Shown: positions 3,336 to 4,357 of the stretch, piece by piece
Layout of the letters: every line of letters starts with the position of its first letter
Numbering within the stretch: the first letter of the stretch is position 1
Sequence record: KX828711
Length of the DNA: 64,000 nt
Direction: 5' to 3' (one strand)
Source: Shigella phage SH7
The notes under the pieces: model-generated
The model's database searches: none
What the model saw: the letters and a program-made list of their open reading frames with translations, nothing else
What the model was told of the DNA's origin: nothing
Position numbers and translations under genes: made by a program

Positions 3336-3411
3336 TGGTCGAGGCAGTAGGGATCGAACCTACGACCTAGGACTTAGAAGGTCCTTGCTCTTCCTTCTGA
3401 GCTATGCCCCG
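3336..3411 (-). tRNA. tRNA-Arg (anticodon UCU)
   Basis: Hand-folded 76-nt cloverleaf: 7-bp acceptor stem, anticodon loop CUUCUAA, T-loop TTCGATC, CCA encoded. Confidence 0.8.
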
Positions 3412-3415
3412 TAAT

Positions 3416-3491
3416 TGGGGTGACCGATGGGAGTCGAACCCATGACTACGAGAATCACAATCTCGAGTTCTACCAACTGAACTACGGCCAC
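3416..3491 (-). tRNA. tRNA-His (anticodon GUG)
   Basis: 76-nt cloverleaf, anticodon loop UUGUGAU, discriminator C, CCA encoded; no encoded G at -1. Confidence 0.6.
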
Positions 3492-3604
3492 ATTAATACC
3501 TACTCCAACAATCAAGATGTCTTCACACGAAATTAAGAGAAGAGTGATCAGTTCAACCCCGATAATCGCGTCAAGTAGATATTAATGTGACAGTTGTCAC
3601 AAAT
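3492..3604 (-). other. 113-nt spacer inside the tRNA array with no cloverleaf; possible small stable RNA
   Basis: tRNA-sized gap between tRNA-Asn and tRNA-His; contains the inverted repeat TGTGACA-N2-TGTCACA next to the tRNA-Asn 3' end. Confidence 0.3.
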
Positions 3605-3680
3605 TTGGCGGACGTGATAGGATTCGAACCTATAACCAATCGCTTAACAGGCGATCGCTCTGCCATTGAGCTACACATCC
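3605..3680 (-). tRNA. tRNA-Asn (anticodon GUU)
   Basis: 76-nt cloverleaf, anticodon loop CUGUUAA, T-loop TTCGAAT, CCA encoded. Confidence 0.75.
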
Positions 3681-3684
3681 AAAT

Positions 3685-3771
3685 TGGTGGGGAGTGATGG
3701 AGTCGAACCACCCGAGTCGCAATGACAATGGATTTACAGTCCACACCGCTACCTCTACGGGATAACTCCCC
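3685..3771 (-). tRNA. tRNA-Tyr (anticodon GUA), long variable arm
   Basis: 87-nt type II cloverleaf, anticodon loop CUGUAAA, acceptor GGGGAGT/ACTCCCC, CCA encoded. Confidence 0.7.
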
Positions 3772-3784
3772 TTAATTCTTAATT

Positions 3785-3859
3785 TGGTGGCCCTAGGTGG
3801 AATTGAACCACCATCTGGCGATTATGAGTCGCTTGCTTGAACCTTCCAGCTACAGGGCC
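3785..3859 (-). tRNA. tRNA with CAU anticodon (Ile lysidine-type as in T4, or Met)
   Basis: 75-nt cloverleaf, anticodon loop CUCAUAA; sits at the position of T4 tRNA-Ile in the conserved order. Confidence 0.7.
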
Positions 3860-3860
3860 T

Positions 3861-3936
3861 TGGTGCTGATTGACGGAATCGAACCGCCGACCTTCTCATT
3901 ACAAGTGAGTTGCTCTACCTACTGAGCTAAATCAGC
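3861..3936 (-). tRNA. tRNA-Thr (anticodon UGU)
   Basis: 76-nt cloverleaf, anticodon loop CUUGUAA, CCA encoded. Confidence 0.8.
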
Positions 3937-3941
3937 AAAAC

Positions 3942-4031
3942 TGGCGGAGGCAATAGGATTTGAACCTATGAGTCGCCGGAGCGACTGCCGGTTTTCAAGA
4001 CCGGTGCATTAAACCACTCTGCCACGCCTCC
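3942..4031 (-). tRNA. tRNA-Ser (anticodon UGA), long variable arm
   Basis: 90-nt type II cloverleaf GGAGGCGTGGCAGAGTGG..., anticodon loop CUUGAAA; matches recalled T4 tRNA-Ser. Confidence 0.85.
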
Positions 4032-4033
4032 AG

Positions 4034-4107
4034 TCTCCATACAAGGATTTGAACCTTGGACCTCCTGATCCCAAATCAGGCGCTCTACCAAACTGAGCTA
4101 CACGGAG
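4034..4107 (-). tRNA. tRNA-Pro (anticodon UGG), CCA not encoded
   Basis: Cloverleaf CTCCGTGTAGCTCAGTTTGGTAGAGC..., anticodon loop UUUGGGA. Confidence 0.85.
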
Positions 4108-4117
4108 TAAATTAAAT

Positions 4118-4191
4118 TGGAGCGGATAATGAGAATCGAACTCACATCATCAGATTGGAAGTCTGAGGTAATGCCATTATACGATATCCGC
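4118..4191 (-). tRNA. tRNA-Gly (anticodon UCC)
   Basis: Cloverleaf GCGGATATCGTATAATGGC..., anticodon loop CUUCCAA, CCA encoded; matches recalled T4 tRNA-Gly. Confidence 0.85.
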
Positions 4192-4196
4192 AAATT

Positions 4197-4283
4197 TGGT
4201 GCGAGAAGTGGGACTCGAACCCACAAGGAAATCATTCCGCAGCATTTTAAGTGCTGTGCCTTTACCAATTTGACCATTCTCGC
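4197..4283 (-). tRNA. tRNA-Leu (anticodon UAA), long variable arm
   Basis: 87-nt type II cloverleaf GCGAGAATGGTCAAATTGG..., anticodon loop CUUAAAA, CCA encoded. Confidence 0.85.
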
Positions 4284-4284
4284 G

Positions 4285-4357
4285 CTGGGAATAAAGGACT
4301 CGAACCTTTGCATCCTGGAATCAAAATCCAGTGCCTTACCAACTTGGCTAATTCCCA
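4285..4357 (-). tRNA. tRNA-Gln (anticodon UUG), CCA not encoded
   Basis: Cloverleaf TGGGAATTAGCCAAGTTGG..., anticodon loop UUUUGAU. Confidence 0.85.

Follow-up and report, generated by a model that had tools for sequence, protein, structure and literature searches.

A conserved structured RNA leader precedes tRNA-His in the tRNA gene array of Shigella phage SH7 and related phages

In this study, the tRNA gene array of Shigella phage SH7 was investigated within a window of 64,000 nucleotides (record KX828711), and we observed that the spacer between its tRNA-Asn and tRNA-His genes holds a conserved leader that is a strand-specific three-way-junction RNA on the tRNA strand. This leader is an unannotated RNA family, without a match in Rfam; the 11-tRNA array around it was previously known. 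With moderate confidence, we read the spacer as a structured 5' leader of the phage tRNA-His, which acts in cis in the processing of that tRNA and is probably released as a stable RNA. All the features described below lie on the minus strand of the window.

The tRNA array and its relation to T4, T2 and T6

Exactly 11 tRNA genes were detected by ARAGORN between 3336 and 4357, transcribed in the order Gln, Leu, Gly, Pro, Ser, Thr, CAU, Tyr, Asn, His and Arg, which is the order that the initial annotation had obtained by folding the sequence by hand. Ten of the 11 scored 56-74 bits with the Rfam tRNA model, against a gathering score of 29, and the long-arm tRNA-Tyr was listed under tRNA-Sec, a family of the same Rfam clan. 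The genes are tRNA-Gln(UUG) at 4284-4357, tRNA-Leu(UAA) at 4197-4283, tRNA-Gly(UCC) at 4118-4191, tRNA-Pro(UGG) at 4033-4107, tRNA-Ser(UGA) at 3942-4031, tRNA-Thr(UGU) at 3861-3936, the CAU-anticodon tRNA at 3785-3859, tRNA-Tyr(GUA) at 3685-3771, tRNA-Asn(GUU) at 3606-3680, tRNA-His(GUG) at 3416-3491 and tRNA-Arg(UCU) at 3336-3411. Since the best E. coli match of the CAU tRNA (81.6%, full length) is annotated as tRNA-Ile, its reading as Ile(CAU), of the Ile2 (lysidine) type, is reasonable. CCA is encoded in nine of the 11 genes and is absent from Gln and Pro, as had been noticed before, and the need for host CCA addition that was deduced from this follows from the sequence together with classical T4 knowledge. 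For the neighbouring ORFs, PHROGs returned 'unknown function' only.

The array belongs to the T-even (Tequatrovirus) tRNA gene cluster, at the T4 locus: its flanks, on the trna.2-4 side as well as on the rnaD/rnaC/e.8 side, are 92-98% identical to those of T4, and the first seven genes are the same. Phage 4E10, in which the same 11 tRNAs are annotated, matches the window with 98.8% identity over the whole 1.8 kb, and this array is annotated in hundreds of Tequatrovirus genomes. It is an ordinary, previously annotated feature of T4-like coliphages and the common state in Tequatrovirus; its earlier description as 'expanded' therefore holds relative to T4 but not for the genus, where T2 and T6 already carry Tyr and/or Asn, with both in T2. 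The T4 gene order is Ile, segB, Arg, rnaD and rnaC, whereas the window lacks segB and has Tyr, Asn and His at its site. The Ile and Arg sequences also differ from those of T4: homology to T4 in the BLAST comparison stops within the CAU tRNA gene, at about 3840, and the tRNA-Arg of the window has no BLAST match to T4 tRNA-Arg and is nearly identical to the T2 version. A Tyr-Asn-Arg-ORF block is common to T2 and the window; in T2, Asn is followed after 4 nt by Arg, with neither leader nor tRNA-His between them, whereas the window adds the two as a cassette.

According to the initial annotation, Tyr, Asn and His occupy the interval in which T4 carries its two small stable RNAs. This had to be withdrawn, because in T4 both stable RNAs lie downstream of tRNA-Arg and both are kept in the window at 2708-2969, as homologues detected by BLAST of rnaD (species 2 stable RNA, 2853-2969, 86% identical) and rnaC (species 1 stable RNA, 2708-2846, 97% identical), with a terminator-like hairpin at 2657-2634 beyond the latter. 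With both present, the spacer is no replacement for them. A reading of the spacer as a further homologue of rnaC or rnaD was rejected, as MAFFT showed no similarity and the BLAST matches fell at 2708-2969 instead. The T4 species 1 and 2 RNAs, which are small, co-transcribed with and processed from the T-even tRNA operon, and without an assigned function, nevertheless resemble the RNA proposed here for the spacer; they differ in that their 3' ends are tRNA-like, with a T-arm in the case of rnaC and CCA in that of rnaD, and in their place downstream of tRNA-Arg.

Extent and predicted fold of the leader

With the ARAGORN flanks, the spacer between Asn and His extends over 3492-3605 and measures 114 nt, one more than the 113 nt first given. 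The conserved leader within it occupies 3592-3492 (about 101 nt), and our covariance model R1 spans it from end to end with 115 bits, its match continuing to 3487 inside tRNA-His. The spacer (3492-3605) contains no tRNA detectable by ARAGORN or by Rfam RF00005 at E up to 10, in agreement with the earlier view, and no Rfam 15 family (ribozymes, riboswitches, sRNAs) overlaps it in a search of 2800-5000 at E up to 10.

Pairing and covariation outline three helical elements. The AU-rich basal helix P1 is formed by the 5' strand AUUAAUAUCUACUU (3573-3586) and the 3' strand GAGUAGGUAUUAAU (3492-3505), which ends at U(-1), position 3492, where it pairs with A3586. It has 14 bp up to -1, and GUCAC at 3591-3587 can prolong it into the tRNA, to 19 bp when tRNA nucleotides +1 to +5 (3491-3487) are counted. 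The P2 domain (3525-3571), with a closing stem ACGCG/CGUGU and an inner hairpin, is exchanged between lineages in at least four sequence types, each of which keeps a pairing of its own; in Erwinia IT22 and Serratia LC53 many P2 positions differ and the pairing is retained. The P3 hairpin (3507-3521) consists of a 4-bp stem, whose second pair is seen as G-C, A-U, U-A and C-G, and a 7-nt loop reading UCUUGAU in the window and UCAUGAU in most relatives. Two of the P2 types, though neither the Erwinia nor the Winklervirus type, would allow the P2 and P3 loops to kiss (UCAUGA with UCAUGA, or UGAU with AUCA).

The inverted repeat TGTGACA-N2-TGTCACA that first drew attention to the spacer is present as TGTGACA-AC-TGTCACA at 3601-3586 (P0). 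Inverted repeats of 7 nt are by themselves no more than chance would give, with tens estimated per 64 kb, and this one is meaningful because its TGTCACA half is conserved rather than as a repeat. Its upstream half is confined to Tequatrovirus; the leader begins, at its conserved 5' end, with the downstream half, and an analogous GTGACA...TGTCAC repeat occurs in STP4-a. Folded as a hairpin, P0 would sequester GUCAC, which is otherwise able to pair with nucleotides +1 to +5 of tRNA-His.

Two further candidates were considered for the element and rejected. A hammerhead-like reading (three-way junction, CUGAUCA, GAA) was set aside, as the motif lies in a loop, is missing from the other P2 types and has no Rfam ribozyme match. 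A RegB target was likewise discarded, because GGAG is not kept in Vettismorki or PEi26.

Covariation and strand specificity

Standard pairs were found in 91-92% of the alignment cells, against 33-45% when the 3' partners were slid. Changes on both sides were recorded for 10 of 35 pairs with 13 sequences and for 17 of 35 with 17 distinct sequences, counts that are inflated by few and related sequences and by the fitting of the alignment (A6) to the model; shuffles gave 5.0 and 7.8, respectively, with none of 500 reaching the observed value, and slid controls gave 1-6 such pairs. Several leader pairs are invariant G.U, and R1 scored 115 bits on the tRNA strand compared with 19 on the opposite strand. 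The earlier suggestion that the spacer encodes a stable RNA or a processing site is thus supported in substance, by a conserved, covarying and strand-specific RNA that abuts tRNA-His and by its positional counterpart in T5, which is annotated as a stable RNA.

These observations bear on two other explanations. We consider a function of the spacer as DNA or through a protein, be it as a promoter, terminator, homing-endonuclease site or small ORF, very improbable. Such a role could account for the CDS (hypothetical protein) annotated over the spacer in JD18, MLF4 and UFV01 and for a mini-ORF, GGAG-N9-ATG TGG CCG TAG, readable across the border of leader and tRNA; however, the mini-ORF is missing from PEi26, T5 and Vettismorki, the spacer contains no ORF of at least 30 aa, our scan of its transcribed strand found no promoter- or terminator-like site, and the invariant G.U pairs and the strand asymmetry of R1 indicate RNA. 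A decayed tRNA gene or neutral filler is a hardly credible reading of the spacer, despite its near-tRNA size and its location within a tRNA array, since the tRNA searches at E up to 10 found nothing there, the fold that covaries has a 14-19-bp basal helix and three-way-junction form instead of a cloverleaf, and the leader is almost constant where the body of the neighbouring tRNA-His varies.

Linkage to tRNA-His and distribution

The tRNA-His gene, with a G4.U69 pair and encoded CCA, reads aat|GTGGCCG...CGGTCAC-C-CCA, so that -1 is T and position 73 is C, and the initial remark that it has no encoded G at -1 was correct. T, and not G, was found at -1 in all the phage tRNA-His genes examined (Straboviridae, T5, Felix O1), and the T4-like matches to E. 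coli tRNA-His all start at query position 2 or later. Compared with the bacterial type, which has an encoded G(-1):C73 pair, the gene of the window is without G(-1) and keeps C73 and the GUG anticodon. Among 60 unrelated viral loci sampled with ARAGORN, no tRNA-His was detected.

The leader lies directly 5' of tRNA-His in every lineage except A7_1 and the deletion derivative STP4-a, in which the leader persists and tRNA-His is lost, while T2, T4 and T6 possess neither; leader and tRNA-His are inserted or deleted together, as one cassette of about 190 nt. P1 terminates exactly at nucleotide -1 of tRNA-His, where an invariant U is paired with an invariant A (17 of 17 sequences), and contigs whose adjoining tRNA-His body varies carry a nearly unchanged leader.

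In total, leader matches were obtained in 354 phage records and in at least seven Tevenvirinae genera, namely Tequatrovirus, Karamvirus, Jiaodavirus, Gelderlandvirus, Roskildevirus and Winklervirus, together with Kanagawavirus, where a reduced form consists of the P1 hairpin only. Reduced versions of the element measure 10 bp as a hairpin in PEi26 and 7 bp as a stem in an Aeromonas phage; Felix O1 has a 5-bp hairpin that ends at -4. In four Vequintavirinae records the element precedes tRNA-Gln, with about 10 unpaired nucleotides between them, which indicates that uncoupling from tRNA-His can occur. No leader match was found in 185,579 bacterial species genomes, and IMG/VR pattern scans gave mostly chance matches and one new lineage only (L030). 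A literature search, which did not extend to the old T5 and T-even papers, returned nothing usable on T5 RNA III, on U(-1) of phage tRNA-His or on a leader of this kind. With this leader, hundreds of phage genomes that serve in therapy and ecology gain an RNA family so far unannotated, and some of them mis-annotate the region as a hypothetical protein.

Another reading takes the element for a small stable RNA that acts in trans, for instance as a decoy or regulator, is excised by way of the flanking tRNAs and shares no more than cassette descent with tRNA-His. Its survival in STP4-a after the loss of tRNA-His and its place before tRNA-Gln in Vequintavirinae are in favour of this, as are the conservation of P2 and P3 beyond the needs of a processing helix, the nearly invariant P3 loop UCAUGAU and the other stable RNAs, without assigned functions, in the tRNA operons of T4 and T5. 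Nevertheless, wholesale swapping of P2 between lineages would be odd for a specific interaction, Kanagawavirus retains the P1 hairpin alone, the placement of the element with respect to -1 does not shift by even one nucleotide, and no target or partner has been identified, and we regard a trans-acting RNA as distinctly unlikely.

T5 RNA III as the nearest known counterpart

The T5 record NC_005859 annotates rnaIII, a 'stable RNA with unknown functions', at 30284-30389 (106 nt), directly 5' of tRNA-His. Like the leader, T5 RNA III stands immediately before a phage tRNA-His having U(-1) and C73, is of comparable size (106 against about 101 nt) and multi-branched shape, and has a long terminal helix whose 3' strand enters the 5' end of the tRNA, with an A opposite U(-1). 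Its internal helices and loops differ from those of the leader, however, and cmsearch with R1 over the 30-kb T5 locus gave no match at E up to 10. T5 RNA III is also annotated as stable in its record, whereas the T-even leader is known here from sequence alone. The analogy is built on position, on architecture and on the end coordinates of a database record; if the two are the same device, they would be independent inventions or very old relatives.

The closing helix of T5 RNA III comprises 16 bp, with U(-1) and G(+1) included. On each strand the annotated end follows CAAU, which gives a 2-nt 3' overhang. Staggered cuts of the RNase III type, with U(-1) remaining on the tRNA, are compatible with these ends, and the inferred cut lies 14 bp from the top of the helix in T5 and 13 bp from it in the window. 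Only tRNA-His starts one nucleotide earlier in the T5 record, at U(-1), than in the ARAGORN prediction; for the 21 other T5 tRNAs found by ARAGORN, the coordinates are identical. T5 RNA III is conserved and always adjoins tRNA-His in about 295 T5-like records; its BLAST comparison yielded 297 records, the matches listed being T5-like phages, with at least 95% identity in all but two (80-90%). The T5 record also states that tRNA-His with a replaced anticodon is an effective amber suppressor.

Proposed role in tRNA-His maturation

To our knowledge, tRNA-His alone among the tRNAs needs an additional 5' nucleotide for its charging, and we know of no source for it in E. coli other than the encoded G(-1). 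In this host route, G(-1):C73 is encoded and RNase P cuts at -1 (Orellana, Cooley and Soll 1986; Burkard et al. 1988, cited in PMC11143913). The phage faces the same problem of an extra 5' residue on tRNA-His; there, however, the leader helix pairs U(-1) instead, and since T at -1 cannot pair with C73, the host rule of displaced RNase P cleavage is not applicable.

In the cis-acting reading that we prefer, the leader would be co-transcribed in the tRNA operon and excised between the upstream tRNA and tRNA-His, and a discrete RNA of about 100 nt may survive, by analogy with T5 RNA III, presumably because both of its ends would be locked in a 12-14-bp helix. A more specific proposal, which we hold only tentatively, is that P1 is the processing determinant of the G(-1)-less tRNA-His and leaves a 5'-phosphorylated U(-1). 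Such a pU(-1)-tRNA-His would come about through a staggered double-strand cut of the RNase III type at the foot of P1, or through RNase P cutting slowly or at a displaced site, and as RNase P acts poorly on leaders of a single nucleotide, the extra 5' residue needed by HisRS would then persist. T4 tRNA maturation involves RNase III (PMC4810235). The stems cut by RNase III (T7 R1.1 type, rRNA precursors, T4 tRNA maturation) are likewise long, uninterrupted, AU-rich duplexes edging a stable RNA, but the leader helix has only 14-19 bp, or 7-10 bp in reduced forms, and its cut sites are inferred. Classical RNase III substrates have about two turns of uninterrupted dsRNA, for which the reduced versions are short; coaxial stacking on the acceptor stem could lengthen the P1 duplex.

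In its furthest-reaching form, the proposal would make this a third solution of the tRNA-His '-1' problem in lytic enterobacterial phages, with neither encoded G(-1) and displaced RNase P nor Thg1: a leader helix over the -1/+1 border, an RNase III cut, an untrimmable pU(-1)-tRNA-His and the release of a stable RNA. Taken as a whole, we rate this as unlikely.

U at -1 is the ordinary preferred context of canonical RNase P cleavage, and tRNA-His may therefore simply be cut at +1. The leader would then be a kinetic or folding device only, one that delays RNase P or orders the His-Arg processing through the helix next to -1 and an optional invasion of the acceptor stem over 5 bp by GUCAC, with tRNA-His starting at G(+1) and the leader itself a by-product, an explanation that we find improbable. 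It is in keeping with the finding that stable 5'-leader hairpins adjoining the cleavage site slow RNase P about 10-fold and impose a 3'-to-5' order of processing (PMC10731613). It is also in keeping with the predicted folds: invasion of the acceptor stem by P1 is part of the minimum-free-energy fold of leader plus tRNA in the precursors that bear GUCAC (window, Pet-CM3-4, CF-SP2, IT22), with -53.0 kcal/mol in the window against -49.2 for leader and tRNA folded separately, and Roth01, which is without GUCAC, shows no such invasion. On the other hand, a purely kinetic role leaves unexplained why, in several phage families that are unrelated, tRNA-His alone should have this need, why conservation and covariation extend to P2 and P3, and why the T5 annotators placed the 5' end of tRNA-His at U(-1). 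The G(-1)-less phage tRNA-His is maintained, and the leader abutting U(-1) provides a testable handle on its maturation and recognition.

Codon usage

Codon-usage adaptation had been suggested as the reason for the additional tRNAs. In 55 long ORFs of the window, we counted 58.5 Asn, 42.2 Tyr and 12.9 His codons per 1000, compared with about 39, 28 and 23, respectively, in E. coli. The suggestion thus fits only in part, and not for His, whose codons are so scarce in the phage ORFs that codon demand cannot explain its tRNA, and the term 'extra isoacceptors' does not apply, because the Tyr, Asn and His tRNAs are extra copies of the sole isoacceptor of their codon box and not new isoacceptors. 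The scarcity of His codons points away from codon supply and towards roles such as the replacement of tRNAs attacked by host defences, a candidate role for tRNA-His that is already known for phage tRNA-Tyr and tRNA-Lys (PMC11555353, PMC11464382).

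A conserved structured RNA between tRNA-Asn and tRNA-His

The gap between the tRNA-Asn and tRNA-His genes of the window holds a genuine structured RNA family, previously unannotated, that is tied to a tRNA-His without an encoded G(-1). Genes of the array are separated by 0-13 nt, with the sole exception of this spacer, which measures 114 nt (3492-3605, minus strand) rather than the 113 nt (3492-3604) first reported. As initially claimed, it holds no tRNA, since ARAGORN called none, and it has no match in Rfam 15 at E up to 10. Used alone as a BLAST query, the spacer matched 354 phage records, 196 of them at 95% identity or more, while about 160 matches at 60-90% came from other genera. 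The element occurs in Jiaodavirus (Klebsiella), Karamvirus (Enterobacter, Cronobacter), Gelderlandvirus (Salmonella, Proteus), Roskildevirus (Erwinia) and Winklervirus (Serratia, Erwinia), as well as in four Vequintavirinae records. Among the matches listed, the stretch is unannotated in nearly all, save for overlap with the adjacent tRNA, and a few records place a hypothetical protein over it. A 24-base degenerate pattern across the spacer 3' end found 12 metagenome contigs, all phage-like, and none of 185,579 bacterial species genomes.

The leader proper (3592-3492) folds as a three-way junction, derived by RNAalifold on five lineages followed by manual column assignment. On the minus strand, the basal helix P1 joins the two leader ends (3586-3573 paired with 3505-3492), the P2 domain (3571-3525) consists of a closing stem ACGCG/CGUGU and an inner hairpin, and the P3 hairpin (3521-3507) has a 4-bp stem with the loop UCAUGAU in relatives and UCUUGAU in the window. 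Standard pairs occupy 91.9% of cells in 13 sequences and 91.2% in 17 distinct sequences, the larger alignment adding Erwinia, Serratia and Winklervirus forms and being itself fitted to the model, which favours the structure; with the 3' partners slid, the values fall to 33-45% in both. Changes on both sides affect 10 of 35 pairs (13 sequences) and 17 of 35 (17 sequences), against shuffle means of 5.0 and 7.8, with 0 of 500 shuffles reaching the observed number in either alignment, and against 1-4 and 2-6 in the slid controls. One P3 pair is found as G-C, A-U, U-A and C-G, and P2 exists in at least four sequence types, swapped among lineages, each retaining its own pairing (GAUAUUUCGG/CUGGAAUAUU in IT22 versus GGUAACAUGG/CUAUGUUAUU in LC53). 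These data show a conserved structured RNA. Since several leader pairs are invariant G.U and the leader covariance model, R1, gives 115 bits for the tRNA strand versus 19 for the opposite one, the structure is RNA, on the transcribed strand. A loop-loop contact is also possible, as the P3 loop (3511-3517) could pair with a stretch of the P2 loop (3543-3553), UGAUCA in this type and UCAUGA in that of Gelderlandvirus; the Erwinia and Winklervirus types do not preserve this complementarity.

The inverted repeat TGTGACA-AC-TGTCACA, noticed in the initial annotation, is present at 3601-3586, and a 7-nt inverted repeat alone in 64 kb is not above chance. Only its second half, the 5' end of P1, is conserved; the first half is confined to Tequatrovirus, and STP4-a has an analogous GTGACA...TGTCAC repeat. 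The conserved GUCAC is a copy of the tRNA-His 3' acceptor strand and can lengthen P1 by 5 bp into tRNA-His positions +1 to +5, giving 19 continuous bp; the minimum-free-energy fold of GUCAC-bearing leader plus tRNA shows invasion of the acceptor stem by P1. We infer that the upstream repeat half would compete for GUCAC. Across the leader/tRNA-His border (3480-3504, minus strand) lies GGAG-N9-AUG UGG CCG UAG, a Shine-Dalgarno-like motif with a three-codon mini-ORF, which is retained in most lineages, not all, and is probably a by-product of the P1 and tRNA sequences.

Linkage to tRNA-His and the missing G(-1)

In every T4-like lineage the leader lies directly 5' of tRNA-His and its 3' strand stops at -1, the sole exception being STP4-a, where a deletion took most of the tRNA-His that is intact in its relative CF-SP2. 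In T2, tRNA-Asn is followed by 4 nt and tRNA-Arg, the flanks being nearly identical to the window; the two differ by one indel, about 190 nt long, that comprises leader and tRNA-His. In phages T4, T2 and T6, R1 detects no copy, and tRNA-His is missing as well. These comparisons show inheritance of leader and tRNA-His as a cassette, and a helix ending at the A:U(-1) pair, invariant in all 17 distinct sequences. In Kanagawavirus PEi26 the element is reduced to a 10-bp hairpin, homologous to P1 and abutting T(-1), and an Aeromonas Chrysonvirus has a 7-bp stem in the same place. The only uncoupled copy is that of Vequintavirinae (A7_1 type, L006 1490-1594, four records), which lies between tRNA-Gly and tRNA-Gln, about 10 unpaired nt before the latter; it is 87% identical to the Tequatrovirus form, with a shorter P1 and with GGAG changed to GGGA, and was probably transferred horizontally between phage families.

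The window tRNA-His reads aat|GTGGCCG...CGGTCAC-C-CCA, hence T at -1, C at 73 and no encoded G(-1), in agreement with the initial annotation. With E. coli tRNA-His plus G(-1) as query, an enterobacterial record matches over all 77 nt, and T4-like phage matches all begin at position 2 or later. T(-1) is found in all leader-linked tRNA-His genes, in Vettismorki, and, together with C73, in T5 (L104 10283-10284), Felix O1 (L110 29096-29097), PEi26 (L105 500-501) and the Aeromonas Chrysonvirus (L106 493-494). As every phage tRNA-His examined has T(-1), the missing G(-1) looks general among lytic phages from enterobacteria and their relatives, and is not peculiar to the window.

Possible processing role and the T5 analogue

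In T-even phages, transcription of the tRNA cluster yields a polycistronic precursor, which RNase P and further host enzymes cleave. The earlier suggestion of a stable RNA or processing site in the spacer holds as far as a conserved structured RNA on the transcribed strand; excision and stability belong to a mechanism that is plausible and unproven, in which the leader would be cut out of the precursor, its closed ends would keep it stable, and P1 would set how the 5' end of the G(-1)-less tRNA-His forms. In the most attractive version, a staggered RNase III cut would leave pU(-1). RNase III participates in T4 tRNA maturation (PMC4810235), and stable leader hairpins beside the site make RNase P about 10-fold slower and impose a processing order (PMC10731613); according to references in PMC11143913, E. 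coli G(-1) arises by displaced RNase P cleavage that depends on the G(-1):C73 pair. Four points weaken the proposed mechanism: U(-1) is the normal context for RNase P, too; as RNase III substrates the reduced hairpins are short; the T5 end coordinates come from the database record; and the Vequintavirinae copy is not coupled to tRNA-His.

The T5 RefSeq record lists, directly 5' of tRNA-His, a 106-nt "rnaIII, stable RNA with unknown functions". For the 21 other T5 tRNAs called by ARAGORN, its coordinates equal those recorded; tRNA-His alone is 1 nt longer at its 5' end in the record, thus including U(-1). RNA III folds as a multi-branched structure whose closing 16-bp helix takes in U(-1) and G(+1). 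On each strand of a CAAUUG palindrome, one of its annotated ends (5' or 3') follows CAAU, which leaves a 2-nt 3' overhang, the geometry of an RNase III cut. From that cut to the helix top there are 14 bp in T5; an equivalent A(-2)/U(-1) cut in the window would lie 13 bp from the top of P1. In about 295 T5-like records RNA III adjoins tRNA-His and is conserved to at least 96%. As R1 does not detect it, we treat RNA III as a positional and architectural analogue of the leader, not a family member. The leader is probably a further form of the stable RNAs in phage tRNA operons, with a 40-year-old analogue in T5.

In Karamvirus and Gelderlandvirus, tRNA-Gln and the leader are separated by a second spacer, also conserved and about 110 nt long (L004 1389-1500; L012 588-700; L102 427-540). 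It starts AGAGTGTAACGGT and has the 11-mer AGTGTAACGGT in common with the 5' part of RNA I, which precedes RNA III in T5; this spacer might represent a further stable RNA, or part of a shared RNA I-RNA III-tRNA-His module. The corresponding spacer of Erwinia phage IT22 (L014 ~590-625) contains a segment resembling a tRNA 3' half, GGTTCGACCCCATC...CACCCCA, which received no ARAGORN call and may be a degenerate or unusual tRNA.

The tRNA array relative to T4 and other Tequatrovirus

ARAGORN on the whole 64-kb window found exactly the 11 tRNA genes claimed, all on the minus strand (3336-4357), in the transcription order Gln, Leu, Gly, Pro, Ser, Thr, CAU, Tyr, Asn, His, Arg. Ten score 56-74 bits with the Rfam tRNA model (gathering score 29), and the long-arm Tyr appears under tRNA-Sec of the same clan. 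The label Ile(CAU) seems reasonable by similarity, as the best E. coli match is an annotated tRNA-Ile (81.6% over full length). The gene ends encode CCA in nine of the 11, Gln and Pro lacking it as reported. About 10 nt upstream of tRNA-Gln (4367-4390, minus strand) is a hairpin, GGGCUCUU-GCUU-AAGAGCCU, possibly the stem, of RNase III or terminator-like type, that is known to precede the T4 tRNA cluster.

The 1.8 kb around the array has 97-99% identity to many Tequatrovirus genomes, 259 records covering at least 80% of it. The array had been called expanded beyond T4; since phage 4E10, for example, is annotated with the same 11 tRNAs, T2 carries Gln, Leu, Gly, Pro, Ser, CAU, Tyr, Asn and Arg, and T6 also has Tyr, it is a common, already annotated state, expanded relative to T4 only. 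In three close relatives, EPIMAM01, UGKSEcP2 and UGKSEcP1, the match is split in two by about 500 bp with one extra annotated hypothetical protein, which may be a mobile ORF inserted within the tRNA array.

Tyr, Asn and His do not occupy the interval of the T4 stable RNAs, contrary to the initial claim. The T4 order is ...Thr, Ile, segB, Arg, rnaD, rnaC: between Ile and Arg there is segB, a homing endonuclease gene, and both stable RNAs are located downstream of Arg. The window retains both RNAs on the minus strand, rnaD at 2853-2969 (86% identity to T4) and rnaC at 2708-2846 (97%), followed by a terminator-like hairpin (2657-2634). T4 homology ends at about 3840, within the CAU tRNA, and restarts at 2969; where T4 has the Ile 3' part, segB and Arg, the window has the block 2970-3840, in which the 3' part of the CAU tRNA is followed by Tyr and Asn, then by the spacer, His, an Arg other than that of T4, and a 116-aa ORF. 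Both tRNA-Arg and the CAU tRNA differ in sequence from their T4 counterparts and match T2, and the replacement fits a cassette exchange at the segB homing site. In T4, rnaD and rnaC directly follow Arg, whereas in the window the 351-nt ORF (2969-3319, minus strand; phrog_3355, function unassigned) intervenes between tRNA-Arg and rnaD; it is present in T2, annotated as similar to RB69ORF150c, and absent from T4.

Tyr, Asn and His are three of the four G34/queuosine-family tRNAs. Codon-usage adaptation, as initially suggested for the extra tRNAs, agrees with Asn and Tyr and not with His: 55 long ORFs of the window use 58.5, 42.2 and 12.9 codons per 1000, respectively, against approximately 39, 28 and 23 in E. 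coli, so demand could justify the first two only. Phage tRNA-Tyr and tRNA-Lys rescue phages from tRNA-cleaving defences (PMC11555353; PMC11464382), and a counter-defence function of the His cassette is a possibility.
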